Shown piece after piece: positions 2,667-46,573 of a stretch of DNA of 50,708 nucleotides (its first letter is position 1; every line of letters starts with the position of its first letter). Source of the DNA: a virus (taxonomy: Duplodnaviria; Caudoviricetes); the IMG/VR virus record IMGVR_UViG_3300043414_000745, positions 1 through 50,708 of that record, one strand, 5' to 3'. Made by a program: the position numbers and the translations under genes. Under the pieces are notes generated by a model. That model was not told where the DNA came from. It was given only the letters and a program-made list of their open reading frames with translations, and did not search any database.

Positions 2667-5600
2667 ATGACACAAGAACAATATCAATGGCTCAAGAATA
2701 ACGGATACGATCCGGCTGTTCATGACGTAGATGATCAGGGTAATATCTTTGAGAACCCTATTAATCAGCCGCAGCAGAAAGAAGTAATGTCGCCGCTTCG
2801 AGCGGGGCTTACTTCGTTTGCGGGTAACCTGTTGCCTAGTGCGGCTGGTCTTTATGCAGGTGCACAAGCTGGCGGTCTCGGTGGCTCGATGTTTGGACCT
2901 GTCGGCACTATCGTAGGCGGCATCGGTGGCGGTCTCGCTGGCGGCTATGGCGCGGGTAAGCTTCAGGAGAAAGCTCTTGAAGAGTTTGCTCCCGGTGCGG
3001 CTGAAGAGATGGCGAGGGCGCAACGTGATCAGCCTGTTGCTTCTTATGCTGGCGGATTTCTGCCTAACGCTTTGGCACTTAAGCCGTCGTTTGGCGGTAT
3101 CAAAGGACTTGCTGCGCCGTTGATGAGCATGGAGAAAGAAGCTGCCCGTGCGGCTTTCACTCCGGCAGCTCTTAACGTGGGAGCAAACGTAGCTGGCTCG
3201 ACGGCTGGACAGCTTATCGACGTGGCTCAAGGCGGAGAGTTCTCTGTGCCTCGATTCGCAGCGGACGTTGCGTTGGGAAGTGTCTTCTCTGATCCCAATA
3301 AGCTCGGTCGGCGTTTTGGATTGCAGGCTTTGAAACCTGATGTTGCTGCGCCTGAGCAAGCAATGGATCTTGGGGCGCTTCGTGCCACTGAGGGAATGAC
3401 TCCTAGTGAGGTTGAGATGTTTAAGACTCGACCTGAGATGGAATGGTGGAAGCAGCCTGAGTCTACACGTATCGAAGATATTAAAAAAATTGCCAAGCAA
3501 TCTAAAGCTGAGATGCCTAAAGGTATGGCTGAAGAGCTTGCTGGCTTGCCTGAGGTTTATGCTGTCATTCAGGATCCTAAGAAGTTTCCGGAGTTCTTAG
3601 CGTCTTCACTGGAAGAAGCTTTGAATGCGTCGCATGAGCGTTCTGTGCAGCGTAAGTTCTTGAGTCCTGAAGAGCGTGCAGACATTGCTCGGATGGATGA
3701 AAGCAAAAGTGCGTTGGCTGCGCAGAAAGGTACGCCTGAATATCGAGGCGAACAGATGGGTGCCTTGCGTGAGCGCTCTCAAGCTTTCACGCCTGAAGGC
3801 GGTAGTCGCGTGGCTCCTGAAAGCTGGACTCCTGAAGTCGCTAGACCTACTCGTGCGGCCGTCACGACCGAAGAGATCCTTGGGCGTCAGTCTCAAGCGG
3901 CTAAGCCTGTTGACGAAGGCATCTCACTAGAGCAAGCTCTCAAGCCTACGCCTGAAGAAGTTGCTAAGGCTGAGAAGATTCAAGCTGATAATGCTCGCGT
4001 TGAGGCTGAGCAGAATGCTGCTGAGATTCGGAAGATGCAGGATCTTGATGCCGCACAGGCGTTGAGTGATGAAGCTGCTGCGCGTTTGCAGAATTTACAG
4101 GCGCGTCAGGATGAGTTGCTGAAGCTTGCTCAGCGTGCGCCGTCTGTCGTTCGTAAAGGTGTTGCTGAACAAGGCGCACCAGACATCGCTCAAGCTAAAC
4201 AAGAACTCGCTGACGCGCGTGCTATTGCTGCGGATTTATACGCACGCTTACAGAAAGCTGGTGGCGAAGGCTTGATGAGTCAGGCTGATCTTGACGCAGC
4301 TACAAAGCTTGCAGCTCAACGAGGTTTGCGTGTTCTTACTGCTACGCCCGAGCAACAAGCTAAAGGCATTCGTGGCGCTTATGTCGTCAATGAGAATGGC
4401 GAACGTGTTATCTACATCAATCCTTTTGCGGCCACAGCCGACACTGCGATCCATGAAATCGGTCATGATGTGTTTAAGAGATCACCTAATGAACGGATGC
4501 GGCGGTCGCTGATGGACACTGCGATGGATTCTGAAACGTACAAGCGTGAGCTTGAGTATCGTTTGAAAGAAGGCAAGACACAAGATCAAGCTCAAGACCT
4601 TGCACTCGAAGAAGGTCTCGTTCAGGCCTTTGGCGAACAACATCCTAACGTCAAGCCCGGCGAGATTCGTCAGTGGTTTAATGCGCTCAAGTCTTCAGTG
4701 AAGAGCATGGTCGGGATGAAGATATCTCCTGAGGATGCGCTGGCTTGGATGCACTATGCTACGACTGAGGCTGTGCCTTGGAAGGGTGTAGCTGCAGCTA
4801 AAGCTCAAGCTCCTACAGAAGACACACTCAGTCAAGAGACTCGCTATCAGCGTGGACTTCTGGAAAAGATTCAGACTCCTTCAGAGATGGACGCTTTGAT
4901 TCAGAAAGGCGGACCGTTTGAGCGTGTTGGTAGCACGATACGTGATGCATCTAACACTCGCGACTATAAACAGGGCGAGTGGTCGAGCAAGTATTCTCTC
5001 GCTACTAAGTTGCGACCGGATGATCAAGTGCGTTTGTTTAATCACTTAGCACAGGAGTTTGATTCGGGCGTTCGTTCGGCCCCAGCGACAGAGCTTCGTG
5101 CTGCCTATGATCAACTGCGTAACGAGTATCTTCCGGCGATCGTTAACGACTATAACACAGAAGGCTTTACTGTGCGCGACACAGCAGGTCAGCGTGCGCG
5201 TGGCACTAATCCTACATACATTCCGTTGCACGCTATCGCGGATGAAGTCAAGACTATCCTTACAACGCTGCAAGGATCGCCTGAGTATAAAAAGCTTGAG
5301 AATGATTTTAAGCAATGGAACACGCAGCTTCGTCAGGCCGACGGCGCTACTCTTCAAGAAGCTCAGAACTACGCGAATGAGAAGTTTGAAGAGAAGATAC
5401 AGATCACAGCTAAGACACCCGGAATCGAGAGCGGCATTCCTTTCTCTGGTGCGCGTAAGCCTGAAGGTTATCCGTTGCCTCCCAGTTGGCGCAGTACGGA
5501 TTTAATTAGCAATCTCGACAACTATACGAAGCGATCTGCTACGGACTTTGCTTATCAGAAACACGTTGAGAGTTCGCCCGAAGCGATGGCTGCTCTAGGT

Positions 5601-7223
5601 GCAAAGACGATGGTGAATAACCAACCGATCCCAGCGAATATTCTTGCAGCTACACCTAACGTAATCAACAACGATAGCGTGCAGTCTGTGCTGCGTGAGT
5701 ATCGAGGCACACCGGCGCAGAAAAACGAGGGCGTGTTGTCGGGCATTGGGCGTTCGGTTAGTGCCGCGACAATAGGTCCTGTCTCAAAGGTGGGCGACAT
5801 TGGAACCTCCTTGATTAAGGGATTGGTTTATATGCCCGCTGGTGAATACACTTCAGGCTTGATTGACTTTACTAATCGGCTTGGAGATTGGGCGGCGTTG
5901 AAAGAACGCTCTTACGCGTCGGGCCTGAACAAACGAGATGCTGCTCAAAACATGCGTCAAGTTCTAGGAATCGCTGAGGATTCTGTAAACTTTATGGATA
6001 AGGTTGCCCGTGTGATCTCGAAGGGCACGGGGCTTAATCAGTTGGAATCTGTAGCGCGCACAGTAGCACAGGCTTGGGGCGAGACTGTTGTTAAATACAA
6101 CAAGACTCTTGCACTTGGTGGCGATAAGAACGCATTGCAGATGCTAGACACGCTCAGTCCTGACTGGCGTACTCGTTCGGACGCTGATCTATCGGCGCAA
6201 GTTGGACGTTTGCTGCAGGGTTCTTATGACATGCGACAACTTCCTGCTTCTGTTCTTGAGGGCGCGGCCGCTCCTTATCTGACGTGGAGCAAGTGGAGCA
6301 TTGGACAGTATGATTCGTTTGTCAAGTATGCTATGAAGCCTGCAATGCAAGGCAACGTCAAGCCTTTGATTGGGCAGATGCTGATTGGTGTGTTGGGCGG
6401 CGGAGCTGTTAGTGCGGTGCAGGAATGGTTGAACAACCGTCAAGGCAAAGACATATCGTGGAAAGAACTTGAGAGCTGGATGCAGCAGAATCAAGGGCAG
6501 CTTGGCTCTGATGGCGGGCAGCTTCTTGCGCAGAAACTTCTTACGATGGCACAGAAGCTAGGCACGTTCGGATTCGCTGGCGATATTGCAAAGATGACGG
6601 TGGATGCAGCGTCTGGTGGATCTGCTCAGGGCATAGCGACGATGCCTGCGCTAGATGCGATCTATGATGTGAGCAAGCGGGCTGCGGCAGCGGCTAAAGC
6701 ATTAGATGATGGTGAAGACTTTGGCTTGGTCTTGAAGGCTTTGCTTAAGGATTCAGTGATCGGACATATGCAGGTTGCTCGTGTGGCGCGTAACTGGTTA
6801 GATGAGGATGAGAATCTGCGCTATGATGATCGGCGTAGTCGACGGTTGTATGATGAGTTGTCGGGCTTGCCTAGTAAGGGCGGTGCGTTTGCTGTGAATT
6901 ATAGTAATTTGAGCGAGCGAGAATTTGAACGGGGAGATATTACGGAGAAGACCGGCGAAGAGGCATTTGATTTGGTATCGAGAGCGCGTGAAAGCGCAAC
7001 GTCACCAGAAGATTATGCGAGCCGGATTAGAAAGTTGAAGACGAGTCAGAATGCTATCATGCCCTCGATGGAAAGGCAGCCACAAAAGGCGGCGAGATAC
7101 CTGAGCTTTGTCGAAGGCGCAGAGTCAGGAAAGGGTGGCGAGACACTGAAGCGATACTATACACGACAGGATGAAGACAAGTATCGGAAGAGTTTGATTG
7201 AAGGAATGTCTGGGATAAGATAA
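2667..7223 (+). CDS. Large internal virion/ejection protein with zincin-like HExxH motif
   Basis: 1518 aa; last gene of the structural arm; glycine-zipper hydrophobic segments; IRGAY...IYINP...TAIHEIGH. Confidence 0.7.
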   Translation: MTQEQYQWLKNNGYDPAVHDVDDQGNIFENPINQPQQKEVMSPLRAGLTSFAGNLLPSAAGLYAGAQAGGLGGSMFGPVGTIVGGIGGGLAGGYGAGKLQEKALEEFAPGAAEEMARAQRDQPVASYAGGFLPNALALKPSFGGIKGLAAPLMSMEKEAARAAFTPAALNVGANVAGSTAGQLIDVAQGGEFSVPRFAADVALGSVFSDPNKLGRRFGLQALKPDVAAPEQAMDLGALRATEGMTPSEVEMFKTRPEMEWWKQPESTRIEDIKKIAKQSKAEMPKGMAEELAGLPEVYAVIQDPKKFPEFLASSLEEALNASHERSVQRKFLSPEERADIARMDESKSALAAQKGTPEYRGEQMGALRERSQAFTPEGGSRVAPESWTPEVARPTRAAVTTEEILGRQSQAAKPVDEGISLEQALKPTPEEVAKAEKIQADNARVEAEQNAAEIRKMQDLDAAQALSDEAAARLQNLQARQDELLKLAQRAPSVVRKGVAEQGAPDIAQAKQELADARAIAADLYARLQKAGGEGLMSQADLDAATKLAAQRGLRVLTATPEQQAKGIRGAYVVNENGERVIYINPFAATADTAIHEIGHDVFKRSPNERMRRSLMDTAMDSETYKRELEYRLKEGKTQDQAQDLALEEGLVQAFGEQHPNVKPGEIRQWFNALKSSVKSMVGMKISPEDALAWMHYATTEAVPWKGVAAAKAQAPTEDTLSQETRYQRGLLEKIQTPSEMDALIQKGGPFERVGSTIRDASNTRDYKQGEWSSKYSLATKLRPDDQVRLFNHLAQEFDSGVRSAPATELRAAYDQLRNEYLPAIVNDYNTEGFTVRDTAGQRARGTNPTYIPLHAIADEVKTILTTLQGSPEYKKLENDFKQWNTQLRQADGATLQEAQNYANEKFEEKIQITAKTPGIESGIPFSGARKPEGYPLPPSWRSTDLISNLDNYTKRSATDFAYQKHVESSPEAMAALGAKTMVNNQPIPANILAATPNVINNDSVQSVLREYRGTPAQKNEGVLSGIGRSVSAATIGPVSKVGDIGTSLIKGLVYMPAGEYTSGLIDFTNRLGDWAALKERSYASGLNKRDAAQNMRQVLGIAEDSVNFMDKVARVISKGTGLNQLESVARTVAQAWGETVVKYNKTLALGGDKNALQMLDTLSPDWRTRSDADLSAQVGRLLQGSYDMRQLPASVLEGAAAPYLTWSKWSIGQYDSFVKYAMKPAMQGNVKPLIGQMLIGVLGGGAVSAVQEWLNNRQGKDISWKELESWMQQNQGQLGSDGGQLLAQKLLTMAQKLGTFGFAGDIAKMTVDAASGGSAQGIATMPALDAIYDVSKRAAAAAKALDDGEDFGLVLKALLKDSVIGHMQVARVARNWLDEDENLRYDDRRSRRLYDELSGLPSKGGAFAVNYSNLSEREFERGDITEKTGEEAFDLVSRARESATSPEDYASRIRKLKTSQNAIMPSMERQPQKAARYLSFVEGAESGKGGETLKRYYTRQDEDKYRKSLIEGMSGIR

Positions 7224-7276: not shown

Positions 7277-7579
7277 TTATCTAGTATAAGGCTCGCCGGG
7301 ATGTGCTTGCGCGTGTTCGGCAAAGCGTGCATAGGCGGCAAGATCGACGTAGTTATCGGGATGATAGACTCGCGTGGATCGTTGAATTTTAAATGCAACC
7401 ATCATAAGCTCGACGACGTGCGGCGGAATTACTGTGGGCAATGTGATGCCGTAATGTTGTTGAAGAATGCCCGTCCAGCTTAGGCCGATGTTGCTGTGGC
7501 TGTGGTGCGCTTCTCCGTAGATTTGACCGCGCTGTTGGATGGTTGATGAAACAATGTCTTCTGGCTTACTTAGCTCCAT
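7277..7579 (-). CDS. DUF6378-like protein (putative nucleotide pyrophosphohydrolase fold)
   Basis: QRGQIYG...NIGLSW...VELMMVAFKIQR...DNYVDLAAYA pattern. Confidence 0.75.
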   Translation of the reverse strand: MELSKPEDIVSSTIQQRGQIYGEAHHSHSNIGLSWTGILQQHYGITLPTVIPPHVVELMMVAFKIQRSTRVYHPDNYVDLAAYARFAEHAQAHPGEPYTR

Positions 7580-8825
7580 AATATTCTATGTTGTTTTCTT
7601 TTATCCGACATATACGATCCATCGTTATCAGATCATCTAAGACGCGAGTGAGTTCGTCTGGGGTTTTGATTGACTGATAGAAACGGATAAAGATTGATTT
7701 CTTGGTTATCTTGTTACAAGATTTGATATAGCGACAGATATCCTCTGTCAGCTTTGCACTCTCATTGCGGCCCATTCCTACGAAGGGAATGTGCATATCC
7801 TTTTCGAGCCGCGCAAGATGGGCTGTGGCGTTCTCTGCATCTTGTAGCGTTATCACCATGTCCGTCGTGCGGGCAAAGTGTATGGCAAAGAGGATCTTCT
7901 GATGATGGAGATTCTTGCGGCCATAGTATTCATCCAGCATCGGATGCTTGTTCGTATGGATTAGATTCGGATGCAGCTCGAAGTGATGGTGAATGTACTC
8001 TTTAGCTTCGTCGTTTAGAGTGACAGCTCCATAGACTTTTGTGAGTTCCCGGATGTAAGACTGAAGCCGAGCCTTAGCGGCTTTCTGGTCGTCGCTAAGC
8101 GGAGGAATGGAATATAAATGGAAACGCTTCTCGATCCCATAGACGATAATCGTACGTGCCATAAAACCGTCCGAGAGAATATCTTGATTCTGCAGACTTT
8201 GAAACTTGCCGAGTGTCGTGTTGCCGAGCAGACTGATACACATATTTGTGCAGAAGTCTGTATCGCTATGCTTAAGTTTTCGGACGTATTTCTTTCCACC
8301 GTTATAAGCTTCGAGAAGAAAGTCGGAGAGTTGCTCTGCATTTTTCTTAAAGATAGAGGTTAGCTCGTCGAGGATGAAGACGAGAGAGCTGTGATGATAT
8401 GCTTTTCTGCGATTCTCTGCGTCGATGTATCTGTGAAGATAAGCCACGCGCGAGGTCTCTTGCGTAAACTGTTCGAACGTGGTGCTGTTTGGTGCGATAT
8501 AGATCAAAGGTTGCCGTGCGCCTTTGCGATTTGTTTCTGCGTCTTCGCCGAGAAGTTCGGCGGCGAGATCATTCTCTGGTTCTTTGATGTCGGCTGGGAT
8601 TTCGAGTAGCTCTTTCATCGGGCTTGTGATGAGCGACTTGCCCGCCGAGGCAGGGCCGATGAATGCGATATACTGATTAGGGAATACTGCGTGGAAGTCT
8701 AAGTCTCCAAACCAAACGCGCCTCTGAAGGGCTGCGCCGATCATGAAATAGAAAGCAGCATCCACAAATGGTTGTGGGCTTTGTACGTCCTTTGTGTACA
8801 AGCACCAGTCTTCATAAAGGCTCAT
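7566..8825 (-). CDS. DUF3987/YfjI-like AAA+ replicative helicase
   Basis: Walker A GPASAGKS, Walker B FILDEL, GFMAR arginine motif; in the replication module. Confidence 0.75.
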   Translation of the reverse strand: MSLYEDWCLYTKDVQSPQPFVDAAFYFMIGAALQRRVWFGDLDFHAVFPNQYIAFIGPASAGKSLITSPMKELLEIPADIKEPENDLAAELLGEDAETNRKGARQPLIYIAPNSTTFEQFTQETSRVAYLHRYIDAENRRKAYHHSSLVFILDELTSIFKKNAEQLSDFLLEAYNGGKKYVRKLKHSDTDFCTNMCISLLGNTTLGKFQSLQNQDILSDGFMARTIIVYGIEKRFHLYSIPPLSDDQKAAKARLQSYIRELTKVYGAVTLNDEAKEYIHHHFELHPNLIHTNKHPMLDEYYGRKNLHHQKILFAIHFARTTDMVITLQDAENATAHLARLEKDMHIPFVGMGRNESAKLTEDICRYIKSCNKITKKSIFIRFYQSIKTPDELTRVLDDLITMDRICRIKENNIEYYGAK

Positions 8826-9076: not shown

Positions 9077-10069
9077 TTAGGCTAGATCTCTCATCCCGTT
9101 TGGGTTCTCTTTAGAATACTTGCCCCAGTTCTTTCCGGCTTGGGCCTCTGATTTCATGGTGAAGTTTATTCCATCTCGGCCGGTGAGAGATATTGCGAGG
9201 CAATCCTGCATGAGCTTCGCTGTTGTGCCGATATCATTATCGAGAACCAGCGCCAGAAAAGAGTCATGTTTATTGTTAATCGCCGGTAGCGTATTGCTTG
9301 GGCGTTCTCTGTTATACCTATTAATCGCGGCGTGAGTGATACACCCCACGGTGGACTGAGGAATCCATGAGATGCCTTCCCTGATATAAGAGTCAGTAAT
9401 AGTTCTCTCGAACCTACGCGGATAACCAAATAGATTCCGGAGCTCACGTTTAGCTCTAATGTTAAATTCAATTTCATCTTGCCATTCTATGATTTCGGGG
9501 AACAGTGTTGCGAAGAATCCAAGAAAGACTTTGCATTCTTGGAGACTGAGAGTCAAGGTGCCGTGACTCTGTTTGAGTGTCTGAAGCTGGAAGGTCCGCT
9601 CACGCATTCTATAAGAGGAAGCATGGCAGACCATCTTGCCGATCTTGTATTCTTTATCGGAGGATTTGATTGCTTTATCGAGCGGCTTCCAGTCTGGATC
9701 TTTTCGGAGTTCGCTTGGACTTAGGCTTTTCCAATAGCTTGGACTTTTCCCGGCGAGTGGCCATTCGTTTTGCATACTCTCACAGAAGATATGCAGAGCG
9801 ATGAAGGTATGAGGCTTGATGCCTACGTTGAATAGCTCACGATACTTACCGGGGCGCGTGAGGTTGGCCACGATCAGAGCCTCTGCGCCGCTCTGGTCGC
9901 ACTGTACGAAGCTCAGACCGGCTGGGGCGATGTAGATATCGAGGGCTTCTTTATCTGGATTCTGGAGATTCGCTCCGTAGTCGCCGAGGAACTGTCCGCT
10001 TGCAAGTCGGAAGCTTCCTGTGCCTGCTACTTTAAGCGAGGTGAGACAGTGGATGTGAGGTTGTGGCAT
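9077..10069 (-). CDS. polA: DNA polymerase family A, C-terminal (palm/fingers) half
   Basis: GTGSFRLAS...NLQNP; motif A CDQSGAEAL; motif B GKMVCHASSY; motif C KHDSFL; GKNWG terminus. Confidence 0.9.
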   Translation of the reverse strand: MPQPHIHCLTSLKVAGTGSFRLASGQFLGDYGANLQNPDKEALDIYIAPAGLSFVQCDQSGAEALIVANLTRPGKYRELFNVGIKPHTFIALHIFCESMQNEWPLAGKSPSYWKSLSPSELRKDPDWKPLDKAIKSSDKEYKIGKMVCHASSYRMRERTFQLQTLKQSHGTLTLSLQECKVFLGFFATLFPEIIEWQDEIEFNIRAKRELRNLFGYPRRFERTITDSYIREGISWIPQSTVGCITHAAINRYNRERPSNTLPAINNKHDSFLALVLDNDIGTTAKLMQDCLAISLTGRDGINFTMKSEAQAGKNWGKYSKENPNGMRDLA

Positions 10070-10072
10070 AAG

Positions 10073-10918
10073 TTAAACATCCTCACGCCATCCAATAAAC
10101 GACGCATTGAACGGGCGACCGTCGTCTGTGAGGTTGAGATACTTGATCGTCGCTTTCTTTTGGAAGTGATAATTGGGCGCGATAAACTCCTCGCGCTCTT
10201 CATCGGTGAAGCCCGTGCCGACTTCGAACGTCACGCCCCTTGAGGTGATGAACTTAAGTGCGCCTAGTTTACCCTTGCACTTGCCTTCGTCAGACATCAC
10301 TCGACCAATGCACTCGAACTCCGCATCGAGGAAAGCTTTGCGCTTCTGAAGGTTCATCGTCGAGCGTTCTTTCTCGCCCTGTGGCATATAGGATCCGAAG
10401 ACACTCTTGAGCATCTGGCCTTCATAGTTAAGGGCGAGATACTTTTCATAAGCCTTATCGAGTTCGATGCGTGACTTGCAGATTTCCCAGTCGATAAGAT
10501 ACATTCCGAAGGAAGTGTGATCATCACGGAGAATCTTGTCTAGCATAAGCATACGCGTCATGGCGTTGAACTTAGGCTCTACGATGTCGAATGCGTTGAA
10601 GGTTATCTTCTGGGCATTGGGGCCGGGATATATGCGAGTGACGGCCACTGCGCTATTGATAGACTGAAGGCTCATGCCGTGACAATACAACTCGCCGTCG
10701 ATGATATAGTCTGTCTTTGGCGAATTGATGTAGCGGAGAACTTGATTGTTCCAACGCTTGCCGTCTCGTGAATAAAAGCCTTGGCCGGGAAGATACATAC
10801 ATCTTAGGCCGTTAAGCTTTGGCATTGAGATCACGTGGCCGAACTTCGATGCGTCATATACGGCGGCGCGCATGAACGAGGCTGCGATTGATTCGTCTTT
10901 TATTTTAATATCTTGCAT
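10073..10918 (-). CDS. ATP-dependent DNA ligase (minimal NTase plus OB fold)
   Basis: Motif I PKLNGLRC, III IDGELY, IIIa FNAFDI, IV EGQMLK, V LQKRK; OB-fold VGTGFTDEER. Confidence 0.92.
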   Translation of the reverse strand: MQDIKIKDESIAASFMRAAVYDASKFGHVISMPKLNGLRCMYLPGQGFYSRDGKRWNNQVLRYINSPKTDYIIDGELYCHGMSLQSINSAVAVTRIYPGPNAQKITFNAFDIVEPKFNAMTRMLMLDKILRDDHTSFGMYLIDWEICKSRIELDKAYEKYLALNYEGQMLKSVFGSYMPQGEKERSTMNLQKRKAFLDAEFECIGRVMSDEGKCKGKLGALKFITSRGVTFEVGTGFTDEEREEFIAPNYHFQKKATIKYLNLTDDGRPFNASFIGWREDV

Positions 10919-10930
10919 AGTTTTGTTAAA

Positions 10931-12361
10931 TTAATATTCCCAAATCCACTGTTGAAATCCTAACATACCCTTTAGCTTAACCATACGACGCATCTCGAAG
11001 ATCACATCAATGGCTACGTTCTTAGGGTGCTTGATCTTGATCTTATAGAGAGCATCCCCAGCGACCGAGGGTGCGCCTTTGTCTGTTGTTTTCTCGGCCT
11101 TGTAGTGCATTTGACCATGAAGATATTTCACTACTTGATCCGGACTGCCGGGATTAAGGTCAAAGCCTACGAGAATTCTCAAGACGCGATTGAGCTGTTT
11201 GTATCTCTCTTCACAGCGTCTGACGATATAACCCCGCTTGACGGGATCGAAGTGCATTCCGTGGAGGGACATGAAGGCATAGTCTGCGAGGGATTGACTA
11301 GCTTGATCGACCGAGTCTTGAAGTCCACGGTCCCTTGAGATGAGATCAATCTGACCGTAGTAAATTTCTCGGAGGACAATAACGTCTTTAACATTGTAAG
11401 CGCGGAGCTGCTCAAATTGTGCTCTATTTCTAGGATCAAAGTTTCCTGCTTCATCTTTATGAAAGGGCCTGTTAGAAAAAAGCGTTGTTTGATGGGCCAG
11501 AGACTTCTCAGCCTCCGGAAAGATTCGATGGCCCGCGACCATGGTGTCATAGATATCATGGCCGAATGGGATTTTGTAGAAGGCTGCGAGAAAGCATAAG
11601 TCAAATAGAGCATTGTGAATTACTACGCGGCGCTTCTTCATCTCTCTTATGAAGCGAGCAAAGAAAACCACACCAACATTAAGATTGCCACCCCAATCAT
11701 ACACGGGAACAGAATAAACAGGGCTATCTCCGCATGCGATGGCGAGACAGGTGAGGGTGTTGGTCTTGGGGTGAGTCTCAATGTCGAAGAAGATTGGACC
11801 TTCGTGGTCGAAGACACGACAGGCGTCTTCTGCTCGATGGCAGTTGTAGACTTGGGGTTCAGGTTGAACTTTTTGGGGGTCATATGTTAGGAGTTTCTTT
11901 ACGTCTTGCGCGAACCAAAAGCTATAGTTAGATCGTTTCGTCGGGCTTGTGCTTTTGCCATCGTCTTTATCTAGGATGTCTTCGCCGTCGCCTTCGCCAT
12001 CAAGGGCATCTTCCATAGCCCACGCGTCTACGCAGTCTTGTGGCCAATAGGTTACGATGTATTGGGTTTTGTTTGTTGAGGTATAGACTACGCCGCGGAA
12101 AGCATCTAGGGTTTTATCTTTGGCGAGCGGCAGAAAGTCTAGGGCTTTAGCTCCGGCAAAGATGATCTTCTTGATTCCGCTTGGTTTGTTTGCGTTCTTG
12201 AAGAAATCGTCGGCAAAGGTTACAAAAATAGCAGATGGATTATCCAGGTCAAGATTATGATAAGCCAACACAGAACGAACAAAATCTCCGGCGGGTCCGA
12301 GAAGGATGCCGTTGTTTTCTTTATCAAATCGCGAAGGTCCATGTAGAACAAGAGCTATCAT
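10931..12361 (-). CDS. polA: DNA polymerase family A, N-terminal half: degenerate UDG-like domain, 3'-5' exonuclease and thumb
   Basis: UDG-like LHGPS...LLGPAG; ExoI FDIET, ExoII HNALFD, DTMVA, ExoIII YNVKD; thumb NPGSPDQV; ends at EMRRMVKLK. Confidence 0.88.
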   Translation of the reverse strand: MIALVLHGPSRFDKENNGILLGPAGDFVRSVLAYHNLDLDNPSAIFVTFADDFFKNANKPSGIKKIIFAGAKALDFLPLAKDKTLDAFRGVVYTSTNKTQYIVTYWPQDCVDAWAMEDALDGEGDGEDILDKDDGKSTSPTKRSNYSFWFAQDVKKLLTYDPQKVQPEPQVYNCHRAEDACRVFDHEGPIFFDIETHPKTNTLTCLAIACGDSPVYSVPVYDWGGNLNVGVVFFARFIREMKKRRVVIHNALFDLCFLAAFYKIPFGHDIYDTMVAGHRIFPEAEKSLAHQTTLFSNRPFHKDEAGNFDPRNRAQFEQLRAYNVKDVIVLREIYYGQIDLISRDRGLQDSVDQASQSLADYAFMSLHGMHFDPVKRGYIVRRCEERYKQLNRVLRILVGFDLNPGSPDQVVKYLHGQMHYKAEKTTDKGAPSVAGDALYKIKIKHPKNVAIDVIFEMRRMVKLKGMLGFQQWIWEY

Positions 12362-12833: not shown

Positions 12834-13349
12834 TTAAAATTCGCACAAGAGAGCGGCGGTACCCTTGACTTGAGAGAAGTCAAACTGGGTGTTGTATCGC
12901 TTGATGATGGCCTCTCCGTTCTCGTCGCGCTTTGCGAACTTGATATCGCGAGAGTTGGAAGGATCGTCGCTCACGTATTCCGGCTGCGACTGAACGAGCA
13001 TATTGAAGGCATGACCTTGCAGAGTGGACAACGCGTCGGCTACGTCGATGTCGCTGTAGTCTTCGGGCAAACCATCATACAGACCGATAACCTGCAGCGG
13101 CGTGGCAAGAAGTTCGAGGGCAGAGTCAACGCCATTCTTGTTCTCTAGCATGATGTACATGTTGCCCTTTGCACCGAGGGTCTTATAGGTTGTACCGGCG
13201 GCGATAGCAGTCTCGGGCGCAACTATCTCGCACTCACAGACAACCATCTTGAAACCCTTTGCACTCTGGCGCGTCTCGGTGCGATGCACGAGAACCTTAT
13301 ACACGTTGGCGGGGATGAAACCGAGCTTGACTTCTGTACCTTTTTTCAT
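12834..13349 (-). CDS. Putative single-stranded DNA-binding protein (DUF669-like)
   Basis: IPANVYKVLV...SAKGFKMVVCECEIV OB-type start; next to Sak4-like ATPase and exonuclease. Confidence 0.65.
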   Translation of the reverse strand: MKKGTEVKLGFIPANVYKVLVHRTETRQSAKGFKMVVCECEIVAPETAIAAGTTYKTLGAKGNMYIMLENKNGVDSALELLATPLQVIGLYDGLPEDYSDIDVADALSTLQGHAFNMLVQSQPEYVSDDPSNSRDIKFAKRDENGEAIIKRYNTQFDFSQVKGTAALLCEF

Positions 13350-13707: not shown

Positions 13708-14418
13708 TTAAGGCTTAGCCAATTCAACAGCAATCTTATTCAACGCTTTGACAACACAATTCTCCATCGGATTAGGAAGACCCCAGAAGATAGGAGTCTT
13801 TGCGGTGGTCACGCCGTCGGTCTGAGTGGCGAAGAAGTATTGTATGGTATCGCTACCTTTCTCTTTCTTTGCATACACGGACCAGACCGCGAGACACTCT
13901 GACTCGATGCCTTTGTTCGCCCACTCTTTACCTTGCACGTAGAGACGGCGACGAGTTGTCATACTGCCGTCGAGGCCTTGGATTGGGACAATTTCCTCTA
14001 ACCCCGTAATGATGACTGTCTTATCTAGCGACTTGAGATTCGTACACAAGGTCTGGATTCCATCATTGTAGTTCTTCCAGATATCAAACCCTTTGTACAT
14101 CATCTCGCACTTGACCTGAAGCTGGTCGATGGCGGCGGTGATAGAGTCGATCACGACCAGATCTTTCGTCGTGTCTTTCTTGATCTTGTTCAGCTCGACC
14201 GTGAGCTTATCATAGCTGTCGATCGGAATGACCAGTCCTTCAGTGCGCACTCGAAAGGGCATACCTTTACGCTCGGCATCGAGGATAACTGTTCGCGTGG
14301 GATCTACGTTACGGAAGGATGTAGACTTGCCGCAGCCGCTCGGACCGACGAGAGCGATCAGGGTCTTGGGCCATTGAGGTTTTGGAGTTGGGATTGTTGG
14401 GGATGTTGTAGTTTCCAT
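13708..14418 (-). CDS. AAA_24/Sak4-like ssDNA-annealing ATPase
   Basis: GPSGCGKS, ILDAE, VVIDSIT, TAKTP; synteny with PD-(D/E)XK exonuclease and SSB. Confidence 0.8.
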   Translation of the reverse strand: METTTSPTIPTPKPQWPKTLIALVGPSGCGKSTSFRNVDPTRTVILDAERKGMPFRVRTEGLVIPIDSYDKLTVELNKIKKDTTKDLVVIDSITAAIDQLQVKCEMMYKGFDIWKNYNDGIQTLCTNLKSLDKTVIITGLEEIVPIQGLDGSMTTRRRLYVQGKEWANKGIESECLAVWSVYAKKEKGSDTIQYFFATQTDGVTTAKTPIFWGLPNPMENCVVKALNKIAVELAKP

Positions 14419-14438: not shown

Positions 14439-15365
14439 TTACCAAGAAAGGGGTTCGTACTTTACGATGTCGCACTCAGACAGGAAGAGTTCGACTTGCG
14501 TAGCGTTGTCTGCAAAGCATAGACGCTTGAACGGGCACGAAGGACAGGCGTTGATGAGCTTGCCACTAGGCGGCGGGAGCTTATCTTTTGCCATCGCATT
14601 GTTGATGTCTTGAGAGAACAGAACGATGTTCTTCTCTAGCTCCTTGCCGAACTCTTCTAGTTGTTCGCCGGAGAAACTCCAGTCGGGACCGACGCGCCAA
14701 GCTGGAGCGGGCAAGGATATCTGAACGACCAGAGTACGGATCACCATGCGGCGATACCATGCAGCGTTGGCGTAATTGATATCGTCTTTGAAGATATCAT
14801 AGGCAAACTTTTGGAAGATGTAATAGTAATAAGAGAACTGCGTGTCGCCTTCGTAGCCCGCGACTGCGTCCTTGAATGCGTACTTGCGCGTGGTCTTATA
14901 GTCGGTGATCTGAAGGATTCCGGCCGGGGTTATAGAGAGAAGATCTACGGTGCCGACATAGGCAAAGCCCGGACGTTCTAGGTGAGGAAAGTTAAAGTGC
15001 AACTCTGCGCCTCGGAGGTCGCCGAACTTAAGCGGCGTGGGAAGTTGTTGCAGAGGCGCGGCGGTCAGAGCTTTCTTGATCTGATCTTGATCCTTCGCAG
15101 AGAGATTCTTCTCCTTAGCTTCTTTGAACGCGGCGAGACATGCATCTTGCCATGCTTCTCCGCTGCGGTCAAAGGCTATGTTCTCTGCGAACTTGTGAAT
15201 GATCTTACCGACAGTGAGAGCAGTGATGTCTTGCTTCGGCTTGAGGCCGAGGAAGACTGTGAGAAACCAACGGCGCGGACAAGCTGCGATCTTTAGACCA
15301 GATGCGTTGATGGGAATGACGGCGGGGATTCCTTTGTGAGGTAGGTCTTGATAGGTTAGTTGCAT
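14439..15365 (-). CDS. Cas4/RecB-like PD-(D/E)XK exonuclease
   Basis: CPRRW, GKIIH, GTVDLL...TDYKT, and CPSCPFKRLC (four-Cys Fe-S pattern). Confidence 0.88.
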   Translation of the reverse strand: MQLTYQDLPHKGIPAVIPINASGLKIAACPRRWFLTVFLGLKPKQDITALTVGKIIHKFAENIAFDRSGEAWQDACLAAFKEAKEKNLSAKDQDQIKKALTAAPLQQLPTPLKFGDLRGAELHFNFPHLERPGFAYVGTVDLLSITPAGILQITDYKTTRKYAFKDAVAGYEGDTQFSYYYYIFQKFAYDIFKDDINYANAAWYRRMVIRTLVVQISLPAPAWRVGPDWSFSGEQLEEFGKELEKNIVLFSQDINNAMAKDKLPPPSGKLINACPSCPFKRLCFADNATQVELFLSECDIVKYEPLSW

Positions 15366-15847: not shown

Positions 15848-15929
15848 GAAGCTACCCGATGCGCGTCCCTAGGGGAAACCATTATGAAACCCTATTGCAA
15901 GAACAGCTTGCAACGCACCGAGTAGCTTC
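15848..15929 (-). ncRNA. Three-way-junction RNA structure followed by a U-tract
   Basis: 16-bp closing stem (two G-U on minus strand) enclosing TTGCAAG/CTTGCAA and TAGGG/CCCTA hairpins. Confidence 0.5.
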
Positions 15930-16446
15930 AAAGATTATTTTTATATTTGAAAGTAAAGCCAAAGCATTTTTGGCCTCGCTTAATTCTGTGAGAAACTGCC
16001 GAAGGATTGAGTCCTAATGCTAAGGACGCTTCTTTGGAGGAAGCATACTCTTCGCCAGTTTCTACACATATCACAGATTTCTGTAAATGTTTTCCAGCAT
16101 TAGGATAAGTAGTTTTAGATCGATTTTGATTGTTCTCTAAACATGTTACAAAACGGCAGTTACTAGGTTCGTAGTTACCATCATTATTTATGCGATCTAA
16201 TTGAAGACCTCGTTCAAATCCATTAGCTGTTGCCCACTTTGCAAAAGCCTGGAAGTTGTTTACCCATTCATGGCAGACTGTTATACCTCTACCACCATAA
16301 CGATTCCAGCTTTTGTAAGCTGGGTATTTACAACGCATAATCATACAACGATAAACATTATAGAGTGGTGTTTCTTTTCGAGCTTTCGTGCAAGGAAACC
16401 ACGATTGCTCAAATGTTATAGAAATTTTTGCGTTGATGTTAAACAT
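15928..16446 (-). CDS. Free-standing HNH homing endonuclease with NUMOD1-like C-terminus
   Basis: MIMRC...YGGRGITVCHEW...LDRINNDGNYEPSNCRF...NNQNR; VICVETGEEYASSKEA; more AT-rich than its neighbours. Confidence 0.9.
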   Translation of the reverse strand: MFNINAKISITFEQSWFPCTKARKETPLYNVYRCMIMRCKYPAYKSWNRYGGRGITVCHEWVNNFQAFAKWATANGFERGLQLDRINNDGNYEPSNCRFVTCLENNQNRSKTTYPNAGKHLQKSVICVETGEEYASSKEASLALGLNPSAVSHRIKRGQKCFGFTFKYKNNL

Positions 16447-19933: not shown

Positions 19934-20137
19934 TTATTCTTTAACCTCCACAATAAAATCAAAGTTCATTTGCCAACTATCACTCAGTCTGTTATATGTT
20001 TCCTTACCTATCTTCCATGTTCTTGGATCTCTTTTAGATTTGGTATGTCTACATTGTATAGTTACAGTATCCATATCTTTGAACGCCTTGTTTCTTAGCG
20101 TGTGATCGGGCGGCAGTTCATGCAGTTTGTATAGCAT
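19934..20137 (-). CDS. Hypothetical protein
   Basis: 67 aa ORF tiling the operon. Confidence 0.55.
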   Translation of the reverse strand: MLYKLHELPPDHTLRNKAFKDMDTVTIQCRHTKSKRDPRTWKIGKETYNRLSDSWQMNFDFIVEVKE

Positions 20138-20960
20138 ATTCAGGTAGTTCTAGTTCTCCGAGTTCTCTCTTTAGGAGAAGGTTTCTTAGAGCTCGAACAT
20201 TCCCAAAGGAGAATGTCTCGTCGCCGAAGTGTTCGCGCTCGCCAATAGGTGTCCAGTTTTCTTCTTCGATGATAGCCGCTGCGACACATCTGATCTCTTG
20301 AACTCCGCGATCCTTCAAGCTGAATGTCTTCAGCCCGAGTTCGTTGATGCGGAAGTAAAGATCCTCTCTGAACGTGCCTTCCTTTACCATCTTCAACAAG
20401 TCACGATTTGTGGCGAACACGAACCTACATTGAATAGGCACAGGATCGACCGCGCCCACTGGAAGTACGGTCTTGTCTTGTAAGACACGCAAGAGTTTTG
20501 CTTGATGCGCGAGAGGCAACTCGCCTATCTCGTCGAGGAAAGCAGTGCCCTTGCCGACTGCTCTTAGGAAGCCTACGTCGCCCCGTGATTTAGCGCCGGT
20601 AAAAGCGCCGGGCATGTAGCCAAAGAGTTCGCTTTGAAATAGAGTGTCTGTCAGACCAGCCATGTTCATAGCCTTGAGAGGCTTGCGCTTGTGTGATAAG
20701 ATGCGGGCGAGAAGCTCCTTGCCTGTGCCGCTTGGCCCTTCGATGAGTACGTTATAGCGTTGAAGACTTTCTTCGGCGTAGGTTATTGCCGACGTGAGCA
20801 TTCTCTTTGTCGCCGGGTCTTGCGTCGCGTAGGACGATGCGACATTGTGGATACTGTTCTCTTTGAGAGAGTCGCCTGTGATCTTAAGGACGTCCTTCCG
20901 TATGTTATCGAGGAAGCTATCGGCGGCCGAGGTATTGAGTACGTTTGCGTGGATGTTCAT
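20118..20960 (-). CDS. Sigma54 activator (bacterial enhancer-binding protein AAA+ domain only)
   Basis: VLIEGPSGTGKELLAR, SELFGYMPGAFTGA, FLDEIGEL..AHQAKLLRVLQ, FATNRDL, FREDLYFRI, GNVRALRN; no receiver, GAF or HTH domain. Confidence 0.96.
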   Translation of the reverse strand: MNIHANVLNTSAADSFLDNIRKDVLKITGDSLKENSIHNVASSYATQDPATKRMLTSAITYAEESLQRYNVLIEGPSGTGKELLARILSHKRKPLKAMNMAGLTDTLFQSELFGYMPGAFTGAKSRGDVGFLRAVGKGTAFLDEIGELPLAHQAKLLRVLQDKTVLPVGAVDPVPIQCRFVFATNRDLLKMVKEGTFREDLYFRINELGLKTFSLKDRGVQEIRCVAAAIIEEENWTPIGEREHFGDETFSFGNVRALRNLLLKRELGELELPEYAIQTA

Positions 20961-21438: not shown

Positions 21439-23607
21439 TTAATTGTTAGGAGTTTCTTCAGAGTCATCGTCATCATCATCATCGTCTGTCTCGATAACGC
21501 CTGTGGATTCTGTGGCCTTGAGATCGTCGGCGGTAAGCTTGACTATGGCGGCCCGCTTGCGGATAGCTATCTCTAATTCACCGGCGAGATCTACATTGGA
21601 TGAGCCGATCGCATCCACGCTTTTGAGTTTGCGTGCAAGCTTAGGAGCCATATGGTCGCTGAGGATTGTGCCTTCGGGCACATAGATCTCTTGCGTTGTG
21701 TCTGTCAGGGTGGTGATTCGCACGCAGCGACCGAGAGCTTGTGCAAATTCCTCTGCCCAATAGGTCATCGTGCTCATCACTTTGCGGGGCTTCGTGTGCT
21801 GATAGCGATGGTCGAGAGAGATGCCTGTGCCACCGGATGATAGAGTGTAGATACAGAACTCAGTCTCGCCATTGAGGAACGCTTGCACGTTCTCATGCCG
21901 CTCGTTCTGATTCTGATTGTGGAGTTTCATCTCGCGTAGTTTCTCATTGCGTTGAGCAAATGCATCCTTCGTCATCTCTCGGAAGATACGTTCGGATGTG
22001 TACTTAATTCCCTTGTGGAATGCGCGGAATTCTTCCTTCGTGATCCCGATATCATCAGCCTTTGGCTTGCGTGCCTCGTCGGGGTTATCGAGAATCCACA
22101 TGCCCATCTTGACTGCGATCTCTGCTGCCCTGTTTTCAGGGAGTAAGTCCTCTAACTTTATCTCTCGATTGCCACCCCAGATCAGAGAGATCTTCTTCTG
22201 TGTGAGATTCTTGCTCTTGAAATACTCACTATCACACAGCTTCATCACGAGTTCCTTGAGGGTCTCGACGAAACGAATAGCAATCACGGGCGCATAGCCT
22301 TGTCGATGGGCCTCGATTGTGTCGGCGACCCATGTGTCTACGGTCGCAAGCTCTGCCGCCCGAGCCATCACCATGAAGGCAACCATCACTTGACCTTGTG
22401 GATCAATGCTGCGGCCTGTGCGCTCAAGCGATTCAAGATAGTTCTTCATCGCATTCTTGAGCATGTTCTGATTGATGGGATCAGTGATCTCAAAGAGCTT
22501 GACTTTATTGAGGGCCTTGACTTTCTGCGGATCGCCCGGTGGCTTTACGAATCGATCCCCAATCGCTGCGCCCCATCGCTCAAGGGCGGCAGCGTTTGCA
22601 CTGCGCGGATCTGCGCCGAGAGTTAGGGTGCGTGCGAATTCTGGAAATGTCTCGCGCGTGAGGGGTCGAGCGCCATAGTTAAGACGCATTGCGAGAGTCA
22701 TGAACATCGTGTCCCATACTGTCACCGCTGGGGTCGCTGAGGTGAAGACCCACTTGATATCTGGGAACTGAAGGAATGCGTCGAGATACTTAGTGCGCTT
22801 GCTTTTTTCTTTCTTGATCTCTTGACACTCGTCTAGGATTATTAGGCGCGGAGCGGCCTGAGGTGGAAGGTTAAAGCGTATGACTTTATTGACCTGACCA
22901 AAGACTTCTACGGTTTCTTCTTTGAAGAAGTTACGGTTCTTGTTAGAGAAGACTTCGTTGTATGACCATACATCCACGGCAAGACCTACGCTTTCGAGAC
23001 CCAGTTTCTTGAGTGTGTCTCTGAAGTCAAGCACCACGGATTTCTTCGTGATGATTAAGATGGGCGGAAACAGGCCGAGGAAGTTACAGAACTTAGACGG
23101 GTCATGCTTCTGTAGCCACAGTGCAAGGCCCGCTGCGATCCAGCTCTTACCTTTGCCTGTGCCGAGAGGAACAAGTGCGCCGTTGAGATTCTGATTATAG
23201 AGCACCTCAAGCAATGCACCTATCGCTTTCTTCTGCTGTGGTTTGAAGTCGAGGCCGTTGGGCAGCTTGATATCTATTGCTGTATAGGTGCGCTTTTCGC
23301 GAAGGGCTAGCTCTTCCGCAAGGCGTATAGATTCTTTCTGCTGGCGCGCCGGTGCCGCATTGACCCAGCCTTGAAGGAAGCCGAGCAGCGTGGCATAGTC
23401 GAGCTTGATTGTGGGAATTACGGAGAGAGATAGCTCACGCTGCAAGAACTCCCAATCAAACGGCTCTTTGCGATACAGATCTGTCAGCTTTTTGGCCTGC
23501 GATCTTGCGGTTGTGAGGGCGCTTTGCTGTAGGCGATCCTCGTTGCTTGTGTATTGAGGTTCTGCTGGAGTCTTACGAACTCCCGCTGCTGTTGCAAAGA
23601 TATTCAT
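21439..23607 (-). CDS. Superfamily 2 helicase (SNF2/strawberry-notch-like)
   Basis: Q motif FKPQQ, GTGKGKS, ILDECQ, SATP, SGGTGISL, QALGRCVR; acidic tail. Confidence 0.88.
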   Translation of the reverse strand: MNIFATAAGVRKTPAEPQYTSNEDRLQQSALTTARSQAKKLTDLYRKEPFDWEFLQRELSLSVIPTIKLDYATLLGFLQGWVNAAPARQQKESIRLAEELALREKRTYTAIDIKLPNGLDFKPQQKKAIGALLEVLYNQNLNGALVPLGTGKGKSWIAAGLALWLQKHDPSKFCNFLGLFPPILIITKKSVVLDFRDTLKKLGLESVGLAVDVWSYNEVFSNKNRNFFKEETVEVFGQVNKVIRFNLPPQAAPRLIILDECQEIKKEKSKRTKYLDAFLQFPDIKWVFTSATPAVTVWDTMFMTLAMRLNYGARPLTRETFPEFARTLTLGADPRSANAAALERWGAAIGDRFVKPPGDPQKVKALNKVKLFEITDPINQNMLKNAMKNYLESLERTGRSIDPQGQVMVAFMVMARAAELATVDTWVADTIEAHRQGYAPVIAIRFVETLKELVMKLCDSEYFKSKNLTQKKISLIWGGNREIKLEDLLPENRAAEIAVKMGMWILDNPDEARKPKADDIGITKEEFRAFHKGIKYTSERIFREMTKDAFAQRNEKLREMKLHNQNQNERHENVQAFLNGETEFCIYTLSSGGTGISLDHRYQHTKPRKVMSTMTYWAEEFAQALGRCVRITTLTDTTQEIYVPEGTILSDHMAPKLARKLKSVDAIGSSNVDLAGELEIAIRKRAAIVKLTADDLKATESTGVIETDDDDDDDDSEETPNN

Positions 23608-45584: not shown

Positions 45585-46573
45585 TGAACTCCCTCATCCA
45601 ACAAGTTTCCGAAACAGTCGGAGTTCTTCCTGACTCACAGGATAAAGAAACACAAGTGCTCGCGTGGCTTAACCGCGCGGCCGTAATGATCTATGACCAA
45701 TATGATCTGCCCGGCTCTGTGTTTGAACAGTTCTTCTGCGTCGACAACAATCAACACGTCGTCACGTTTCCGTGGTATGTAGGTGCGATTCGCGGCGTGC
45801 GCTGGCATGATTCGTCGCGCCTCGTCACTCTCACAGATATGCGTCCGCGCTTTCATGCTGTGCCTTGGACGCAGCCTTATCTTAAATGGCGACAGATGCA
45901 GTCTACGCCGTTGCATACCCCGCTGACGAACGCGGGGCCTTTGACGTTTCAGATCTCTGCGATAGAGACGCAGCCGTTTGACGTGATCGTGAACGGCCAG
46001 ACTTCTCGGGCGGCCAACGTCACAGAGATCATCTCGTTTACGCCCGGCGATCTCATTAAGACCTCCATCAATCTATTCGAGCCCGAAAGCCCATTCGGTA
46101 TCACCTCGATCAAGAAGTCGATCTATACCAACAGTGACGTTGTTATTCTCAACAGCTCAACGCAGGGCGAGATCGGACGCATTCCCAATAACCAACTCTA
46201 TGCTTCCAATCTGCGCGTGCAGATCTTAGATTGGAATGCGGGCGTGCCGTTCATCATAGGCGAAGATTGCGTAGAGGTTCTCTTCAAGCAACGCTTCTCG
46301 CCCTTTGTCAACCTAGATTCGATCTGGACTGATGAGCGTCTTATTCAGGCGTTGGTCTACGCCGTCAAGTATATCTATGCTGTAGAGAAAGAAAAGATGG
46401 ACGTTGCGTCTGTCAGCAAAGATCTGTTTGAAGGTATCTGTAAGAAAGTTTGTGAGAATCTTGAGAGCGGCACTGAGCTAATGGTGCAGACTGAGCGCCA
46501 CGCTACGCAAAATGCCGCTATCATGTTCCCCACTTGGCCGCTTGTTCAGGGAGGAGTACGCAATCTATGGTAG
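45584..46573 (+). CDS. Putative tail adaptor (tubular protein A-like)
   Basis: N-terminal helices with WLNRA; position before the nozzle candidate. Confidence 0.55.
   Translation: MNSLIQQVSETVGVLPDSQDKETQVLAWLNRAAVMIYDQYDLPGSVFEQFFCVDNNQHVVTFPWYVGAIRGVRWHDSSRLVTLTDMRPRFHAVPWTQPYLKWRQMQSTPLHTPLTNAGPLTFQISAIETQPFDVIVNGQTSRAANVTEIISFTPGDLIKTSINLFEPESPFGITSIKKSIYTNSDVVILNSSTQGEIGRIPNNQLYASNLRVQILDWNAGVPFIIGEDCVEVLFKQRFSPFVNLDSIWTDERLIQALVYAVKYIYAVEKEKMDVASVSKDLFEGICKKVCENLESGTELMVQTERHATQNAAIMFPTWPLVQGGVRNLW

Follow-up and report, generated by a model that had tools for sequence, protein, structure and literature searches.

How does a phage replicate its DNA when the only polymerase gene in its genome is cut inside the polymerase domain and another gene sits in the cut? 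The question is raised by an uncultured freshwater phage, the virus record IMGVR_UViG_3300043414_000745 of IMG/VR (Duplodnaviria; Caudoviricetes), which was analysed over its full length of 50,708 bp (hereafter the window) and which CheckV rates as 100% complete. On its minus strand, reading from 12361 down to 9077, two parts of a family A DNA polymerase gene (polA) flank a gene for a DNA ligase. We consider it probable (roughly 0.85) that the window encodes an obligate two-subunit family A DNA polymerase, derived from a single ancestral polA that underwent fission, and that the ligase is a passenger expressed along with it. The locus is composed as follows.

10931..12361, minus strand: N-half of PolA, 476 amino acids (aa) plus TAA, with a uracil-DNA-glycosylase (UDG)-like domain, a 3'-5' exonuclease and the start of the polymerase domain with the thumb (open reading frame (ORF), phrog_17, Pfam)
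12008..12361, minus strand: N-terminal 118 aa of the N-half, predicted shortened family-4 UDG-like fold (AlphaFold2 (AF2) and Foldseek)
11360..11851, minus strand: 3'-5' exonuclease domain of the N-half, residues ~171–334 (Pfam PF01612)
10934..11218, minus strand: polymerase-domain start and thumb helices of the N-half, residues ~382–476 (Pfam PF00476, profile positions 10–90)
10919..10930, minus strand: spacer of 12 nucleotides (nt) from the N-half stop to the ligase start, an A-rich leader as at other genes here
10073..10918, minus strand: predicted minimal ATP-dependent DNA ligase, 281 aa plus TAA, with nucleotidyltransferase and oligonucleotide-binding (OB) domains (phrog_114, Pfam)
10070..10072, minus strand: spacer of 3 nt from the ligase stop to the C-half start
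9077..10069, minus strand: C-half of PolA, 330 aa plus TAA, comprising the palm and fingers and bearing the TGR-type, NxQN, A, B and C motifs (phrog_17, Pfam)

Anatomy of the locus

Inspection of the ORFs bore out every detail of a first-pass annotation made from the letters alone, namely a polA split in two, a ligase gene between the parts, one frame for all three ORFs, two TAA codons and spacers of 12 and 3 nt. The UDG-like domain, the thumb and the exonuclease for proofreading are all on the N-half; the palm and fingers, with every catalytic polymerase motif, make up the C-half. In family A the polymerase domain is on one polypeptide; in the window it is interrupted between thumb and palm by a stop codon, the ligase gene and a second start (we take these two labels for the sides of the cut from general knowledge of PolA structure).

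The N-half ends in ...EMRRMVKLKGMLGFQQWIWEY and the C-half begins with MPQPHIHCLTSLKVAGTGSFRLAS. Both match the PHROG family phrog_17 ('DNA polymerase'), the N-half at profile positions 565–945 and the C-half at 963–1238, and because these ranges adjoin the two halves together make up one polymerase. The Pfam polymerase profile PF00476 is likewise divided between them (positions 10–90 on the N-half and 229–380 on the C-half). The stretch between the conserved W near the end of the N-half and the GT of the TGR-type motif counts 19 residues in the window (4 + 15) and 18 in a seamless fused relative (P0046), which upholds the earlier view that little or nothing was lost at the junction. In the 50.7-kb record PF00476 finds these two halves only, and neither PF00136 (PolB) nor PF07733 (PolIII alpha) has a match. 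The GC content is 0.46–0.52 over the three genes and shows no break, on which ground a foreign origin of the ligase by composition was rejected.

Position of the cut in the polymerase fold

A profile of 26 fused relatives was aligned with solved PolI structures (E 4.5e-28 to 1e-24), and the alignment is continuous over the junction. In the Bacillus PolI large fragment, the junction lies between the ...LGKLQSTYIEGLL helix and the ...KKVHTIF strand. The AF2 model of P0046 (predicted local distance difference test (pLDDT) 90.6; predicted template modelling score (pTM) 0.90), which represents a fused relative and not the two chains of the window, matches Klentaq, Bst, Klenow and Pol theta (Foldseek E ~1e-24; template modelling score for the target (TMt) 0.70–0.81). 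Its junction is at residues 473/478, inside a non-regular stretch (469–486) that contains the lowest local pLDDT block of the model (81). This stretch is preceded by the last of a run of helices (451–468) and followed by the first strand (487–489) leading to the motif A strand (529–536). On this model, the cut is shown to fall in a surface loop that connects the last helix of the thumb to the first strand of the palm. All 30 aligned N-halves, which come from different clades, stop a few residues past a K-x-G-x-L-x-F-x-x-W motif; that of the window stops 4 residues beyond its conserved W.

Conserved residues and purifying selection

The exonuclease residues D193 and E195 (Exo I, DxE), N250 and D254 (Exo II, NxxxD) and Y322 and D326 (Exo III, YxxxD) are invariant in the 30 N-halves, 26 of which match PF01612 (24.4 bits on the window N-half against a cut-off of 23.6). 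For the first 118 aa, an AF2 model made from the alignment (pLDDT 89.2) has as its top Foldseek matches family-4 UDG and UdgX (E 3e-6; template modelling score for the query (TMq) 0.70; ~45% of the targets covered); none of the 30 N-half members has a Pfam UDG match at E ≤ 0.1. One relative (L072, 6058–8517) has an N-half ORF of 819 aa that matches the profile in two pieces (2–293 and 257–472), implying a putative insertion of ~300 aa inside the exonuclease region.

In the C-half, R21, N34, N37, D58, K145, H149, Y153 and D269 are invariant in 42 sequences. The columns that we take, from general knowledge, to be the polymerase motifs A (catalytic Asp), B (K...Y) and C (HD), with D58, K145, H149, Y153 and D269, align to the motifs of solved PolI structures through the fused-relative profile. 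Insertions of ~290–330 aa were seen in the C-half homologues P0005, P0011 and ~20 more (for example P0017, P0032, P0036, P0045, P0077, P0102 and P0116) at two conserved sites, one inside the GxNxQN motif and one inside motif B. By eye they are intein-like, with a Cys start and an ...HN or ...GN end before Ser, and one has a LAGLIDADG-like stretch; searches of the P0005 and P0011 insertions with Pfam and with phmmer against the Protein Data Bank (PDB) gave no significant match for an intein.

The middle ORF matches phrog_114 (ATP-dependent ligase; E 1.3e-52) and Pfam DNA_ligase_OB_2 (51 bits; cut-off 28), and it falls just below the cut-off for DNA_ligase_A_M (23.5 against 26.2 bits). K34 of motif I (KxxG), G37, R39, D74, E76, E166 and G167 are invariant in 14 ligases, and K192 and K194 are conserved in at least 90% of them. 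Its predicted product is a minimal ATP-dependent DNA ligase of nucleotidyltransferase and OB domains.

The ratio of nonsynonymous to synonymous substitution rates (dN/dS) relative to the window was taken from ungapped pairs (38 for the N-half, 15 for the ligase and 34 for the C-half) and came to 0.097, 0.111 and 0.084, respectively. At ~0.1, these values show that both halves and the ligase are under purifying selection.

Distribution and phylogeny of the split

Scanning IMG/VR with the N-half yielded 67 loci, of which 52 were long enough for the layout to be read. All 52 have the order N-half, ligase, C-half with the same split site, over N-half identities to the window from 99% down to 35%, and two (L009 and L051) have identical spacers of 12 and 3 nt. 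The closest relative (L001) has halves 98–99% identical to those of the window, a ligase only 90% identical and ~190 nt between N-half and ligase; the gap region therefore looks mosaic or recombinant.

The C-half was also searched with HMMER against 1.84 billion cluster representatives (50%-identity clusters), with 1677 matches at E ≤ 0.001 and 204 at E ≤ 1e-30. Counts were made on the best 150 representatives minus 7 with fewer than 270 aligned residues. Among these 143, stand-alone C-halves with the same start site are the majority (94; ~300–390 aa, longer where there are internal insertions), 40 are fused to an N-half homologue in front (710–1152 aa) and 9 are unclear. The naturally two-subunit PolA proposed at first pass is thus favoured by the shared split site in both samples, by the selection on both halves, by their catalytic residues and by the lack of another polymerase.

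On a FastTree tree, the window belongs to a 99-supported group of 41 rows (39 split and 2 unclear). On an IQ-TREE tree of 34 C-half regions, the loci with a ligase in the gap (the window, L058, L063, L064, L066 and L109) form a 100/100 clade, with another ligase-bearing locus (L084) outside it, and the 9 fused rows form one 100/99 group. Five fused proteins (P0008, P0015, P0028, P0035 and P0039; 913–931 aa) have ~90–120 extra residues exactly at the split site, of low complexity in P0008, the only one read, and a sixth member of the same tree group (P0016; 853 aa) has only ~13. On the FastTree tree, split forms surround this fused group, whose members may be secondary re-fusions of split halves.

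The GenBank phage collection gave three weak matches only, of 24–26% identity, and no cultured relative was found in it (E ≤ 1e-5). In MW202489, the one match inspected, the annotation shows a single polymerase gene of 780 aa.

Contents of the gap

If the halves belong together, what is the ligase doing between them? The gap of the window holds the ligase only, and no endonuclease. Over the 52 loci, the ligase and the C-half are separated by at least 500 nt with one or more ORFs in 28 cases, abut or overlap in 22 and are at an intermediate distance in 2. The spacing of the N-half and the ligase runs from an overlap to ~290 nt, with an extra ORF of 62–76 aa or a longer spacer in 7 loci. Between ligase and C-half, a 193-aa ORF is found in L004 (8255–8836) and 23 other close relatives and is absent from the window; it matches phrog_3704 (labelled ferredoxin; E 1.7e-24) and has no Pfam match. 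Its presence or absence among genomes that are ~90% identical suggests a mobile or frequently exchanged cassette. The longest of these gaps (2.6–3.8 kb; L063–L066) contain several genes, one of them with a weak match to a DHH/DHHA1-like phosphoesterase.

An alignment of C-halves from other clades served as the query of a second scan, and the 80 loci obtained were screened with jackhmmer profiles of the window N-half, ligase and C-half. A fused gene of 754–843 aa is present in 49 of them, with no ligase match in the fetched flanks. In 18 split loci of other clades there is no ligase between the halves (in one of them, L069, a ligase lies 6 kb upstream). The halves overlap or abut in L069, L070 and L076, and the gaps in other loci measure 135–1483 nt. 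Their contents vary: an HNH_3 plus AP2 endonuclease in L072, matches to HNH PHROGs in L083 (E 7e-53), L071 (9e-9) and L075 (1.6e-6), and an RNase_T-type exonuclease plus a ligase in L084. DUF7831-like ORFs of ~130–180 aa lie between the halves in several clades. Seven such loci were recognized by reading the sequences (L068 8583–8999, L077 5918–6310, L081 1975–2364, L083 7916–8407, L087 8576–8998, L089 3945–4337 and L114 3233–3775), and Pfam confirms two of them (L077, E 8.5e-6; L087, 0.002). Because sister split clades lack a ligase in the gap, some with halves that abut or overlap, the split does not depend on the ligase, which by these layouts is peculiar to one clade and occupies a gap that is also present where no ligase fills it.

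The same data bear on a three-part replication and repair machine, in which the ligase would dock on the split polymerase and couple nick sealing to synthesis, the gene order reflecting co-assembly. For the Pol–ligase complex raised as a possibility at first pass, the evidence is the gene order conserved in one clade. Within the 100/100 clade that order persists as identity drops to ~50% in the C-half and ~34–36% in the ligase, and the ligase has intact motifs and is under purifying selection. The N-half also carries a UDG-like domain, and in a 2026 paper (PMC13697223) phages with UDG-fused PolA are reported to encode ligases as well, with replication-coupled base excision repair proposed. However, the 18 split loci without a ligase in the gap mean that the ligase is not needed for the split enzyme as such, and the 49 fused loci have none in their fetched flanks. 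Other ORFs, up to 3.8 kb, stand between ligase and C-half in 28 of the 52 loci of the window's own clade. In the gel filtration reported in PMC13697223, as far as the text was available, the polymerase associates with polymerase beta and not with ligase. Adjacency in phage replication operons is, moreover, commonly conserved without binding, and we regard such a machine as unlikely. In a specific form of it, the thumb/palm loop of this polymerase lineage would be a long-lived landing pad for genes, and the ligase that settled there in one clade would have turned into a genuine third subunit, docking on the polymerase once reassembled, possibly with the UDG-like domain as platform. This form is in our estimate a long shot; if true, it would be a phage-encoded PolA–ligase machine that fills and seals in one complex.

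Reading frame and expression signals

Could the three ORFs, or the two halves, be joined into one protein by read-through or recoding of the stops, by RNA splicing or by protein splicing, so that the shared frame has a meaning? The window invites the question, its ORFs being parted by only two TAA codons and 15 nt. The frames were therefore compared in the 52 loci that hold all three ORFs. All nine combinations of frame relations occur, and all three ORFs are in frame in 5 loci, where 1 in 9 is expected; the first-pass figure of 1 in 9 by chance is in line with this count. By this comparison the shared frame of the window is a coincidence, and the frame and the two TAA stops have no function. 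An alternative offered at first pass, a relic of an in-frame Pol::ligase fusion, fails for the same reason; in addition, extra ORFs separate the pieces in many relatives, and the gap of sister split clades lacks a ligase.

TAA recoding was rejected because more of the window's likely genes end in TAA than in any other stop codon (27 of 42); the distant relatives L063–L066 have TGA at both junctions. No Rfam family reaches the gathering score anywhere in the window, and the two spacers are too short to accommodate an intron core outside the ligase ORF; against a novel type of intron inside that ORF, the variable gap content of the relatives would argue. Inteins and split inteins were rejected because there are no intein-sized extensions at the new termini (the C-half has ~5–8 residues ahead of conserved sequence) and because the residue count across the junction is that of the seamless fused relative. 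With frames in relatives distributed as by chance, working stops and extra ORFs between the pieces, a joined protein is very improbable.

No terminator-like site was predicted on the minus strand between 12361 and 9077, and the counts of promoter-like and terminator-like sites in the window are at the level of shuffled sequence. A-rich leaders without a Shine-Dalgarno sequence precede most genes of the record (for example 12834–13349, 20118–20960 and 10073–10918), which hints at a host with Shine-Dalgarno-independent initiation; Bacteroidota would be a guess. Sequencing runs at 85% likeness comprised three metatranscriptomes from two studies (X19, X20 and X21) and an independent lake DNA run (X6), all as contigs and not reads. 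Contigs of relatives cover all three genes, with depth in 28, 29, 22 and 29 of 30 bins (X19, X20, X21 and X6, respectively); since these are contigs, transcription cannot be read from them. Among the pieces listed for these four runs, none bridges either junction with at least 31 letters on both sides. One X20 contig joins 10715 to 10926, with a side of 25, which is below the reliability bound.

That the layout is an artefact or a polymerase gene in decay has a negligible probability: the window is metagenome-derived and one relative has a C-half match in two frames (see below), but the same three-gene layout in 52 separately assembled contigs, including the two with identical spacers, disposes of the assembly error at the junctions about which the first-pass annotation had cautioned, and dN/dS of ~0.1 on both halves of the sole polymerase in a record rated complete speaks against decay.

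Proposed origin and assembly of the polymerase

We return to fission of an ancestral polA. The N-half and the C-half would be separate translation products, each started at an ATG of its own that follows an A-rich leader, with all three genes probably on one transcript, and their products would reassemble non-covalently into the normal PolA fold. Insertion of a mobile endonuclease gene at the split site is the most likely trigger of the fission. The gap between two essential halves would be a permissive landing place for extra genes. In the window's clade, a minimal ATP-dependent ligase may have become fixed there, and would as a result be co-expressed with the polymerase and seal nicks in replication or repair; in other clades, the gap is empty or holds HNH homing endonucleases, DUF7831 genes or other cargo.

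Several points weigh against this reading or parts of it. Each half alone is under the gathering cut-off of PF00476 (24.0 bits for the N-half and 24.7 for the C-half against 34.3), and the family assignment therefore leans on PHROG, on fused relatives, which exceed that cut-off (P0133 75.7, P0102 49.8 and P0008 48.1 bits), and on profile and fold matches. In a direct sequence search of the PDB, the C-half had no match and the N-half one weak match, and it took the profile of fused relatives to reach solved structures. That the two halves associate is, for this protein, something we infer. The grounds for co-transcription are likewise limited to the order and spacing of the genes and to the absence of a predicted terminator, with the site counts at chance level. 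The endonuclease-driven origin is read from the present gap occupants of other clades, and the gap of the window has no endonuclease. In L028 (8287–9143), the C-half match is broken over two frames (query 1–79 and 115–330); it is the only such case among the 52 loci, and a frameshift, an assembly error or a decayed copy are possible causes. Finally, the split and fused labels need at least 7 changes on the FastTree tree, for which the root was not inferred, and no fewer than 5 are forced by starred branches. This does not establish a single fission; of the representatives labelled 'split' that are nested within fused ones, some may reflect independent events or errors of gene calling or assembly.

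Neighbouring genes

The locus lies next to other replication genes:

7566..8825, minus strand: primase-like gene, downstream and in the same orientation (phrog_14296 'DNA primase', E 1.2e-18)
13708–14418: Sak4-like annealing protein, replication module
14439–15365: Cas4-like exonuclease, replication module
15928–16446, minus strand: HNH endonuclease, replication module
21439–23607: helicase, replication module

The HNH gene at 15928–16446 (minus strand) has the same PHROGs (phrog_3377 and phrog_374) as the HNH gene in the polymerase gap of L083. Elsewhere, a 1518-aa ORF (2667–7223, plus strand) has no PHROG match at E ≤ 0.001, and the same holds for other large ORFs, including 46534–49095 and 32585–34393.

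Comparison with known systems

The systems below are compared as they are described in the accessible parts of the papers cited. Fission of PolA between its exonuclease and polymerase parts was reported by Czernecki et al. 2023 in S-SBP1-like T7-like cyanophages and called the first seen in PolAs (PMC10201439; also PMC12695635); the predicted complex superposes on an intact relative, and the new termini are solvent-exposed (PMC10201439). The window is similar in that a family A phage polymerase is fissioned into two adjacent genes and expected to reassemble. The cyanophage cut, however, lies between the exonuclease and polymerase domains, whereas that of the window lies inside the polymerase domain and leaves neither product complete. 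A thumb/palm split is absent from the available passages of PMC10201439, in the available text of which 'ligase' has 0 occurrences.

Closer in its position is the polymerase of the OM43 phages MEP401 and MEP402, which is split inside the polymerase domain around a small ORF, an arrangement conserved in related metagenomic genomes (PMC10580990). Both systems thus have a split within the PolA polymerase domain and another ORF between the halves. They differ in the place of the cut: in MEP401 (OP830906), the TGR-type and NLQN motifs are still part of gp13, and gp15 begins immediately ahead of motif A, whereas the C-half of the window starts before the TGR-type motif. The intervening ORF of MEP401 and MEP402 encodes a small unknown protein, that of the window a ligase, and gp13 starts directly with the exonuclease motif, without the UDG-like domain of the window N-half. 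The MEP401 and MEP402 polymerase is not among the tblastn matches to the window at E ≤ 1e-5.

A precedent for the proposed mechanism is the split B-family polymerase of PhiKZ, of which DNAP-N and DNAP-C form a stable 1:1 complex (PMC13648687). As in the window, a phage replicative polymerase is made as two proteins; it is a family B enzyme of a jumbo phage, whereas that of the window belongs to family A.

Phage PolAs with N-terminal UDG domains have also been described (PMC10201439). The window N-half resembles these UDG-PolAs (N4-like cluster 17 and others; PMC10201439 and PMC13697223) in having a predicted family-4 UDG-like domain before the exonuclease and polymerase parts, and its fused relatives are ~800 aa long, the size given for the N4-like enzymes. 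UDG-PolAs are single polypeptides, whereas the polymerase of the window is split and its UDG-like domain has only ~118 aa, ~45% of the UDG targets. In the phage collection, N4-like phage polymerases gave no sequence match at E ≤ 1e-5.

In T4-like phages, 'genes in pieces' result from free-standing homing endonucleases. Four relatives of the window (L072, L083, L071 and L075) are alike in that a mobile endonuclease gene lies in the gap of an essential replication gene that has been cut. 'Fractured genes' carry split inteins (PMC2677866). The window differs from both, its gap being occupied by a ligase with neither an endonuclease nor split-intein halves, and for want of such halves its pieces would not be re-ligated.

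We found no PolA split between thumb and palm and no ligase between polymerase halves in the accessible literature; the supplementary tables of PMC10201439 and PMC13697223, which lay outside this search, might list cases. Fission of phage polymerase genes as such is known; what stands out here is where the cut falls, how widely it occurs in uncultured phages and the role of the gap as a cargo slot. The published PolA fissions that we found separate the exonuclease from the polymerase or fall just before motif A, whereas here DNA binding and proofreading are on one chain and catalysis is on the other, and among the sampled relatives this thumb/palm split is the majority form (94 of the 143 representatives). 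It may provide a natural, evolution-tested split site for the family A fold (Taq, Bst and Klenow), which could be tried for split-enzyme designs. For annotation, lone halves of this lineage are easily missed: in protein collections they are mostly named 'hypothetical protein', and each half of the window is under the Pfam cut-off. More generally, an essential gene, once cut, would become a protected slot that collects cargo: a ligase in the window's clade, and endonucleases and other genes elsewhere.

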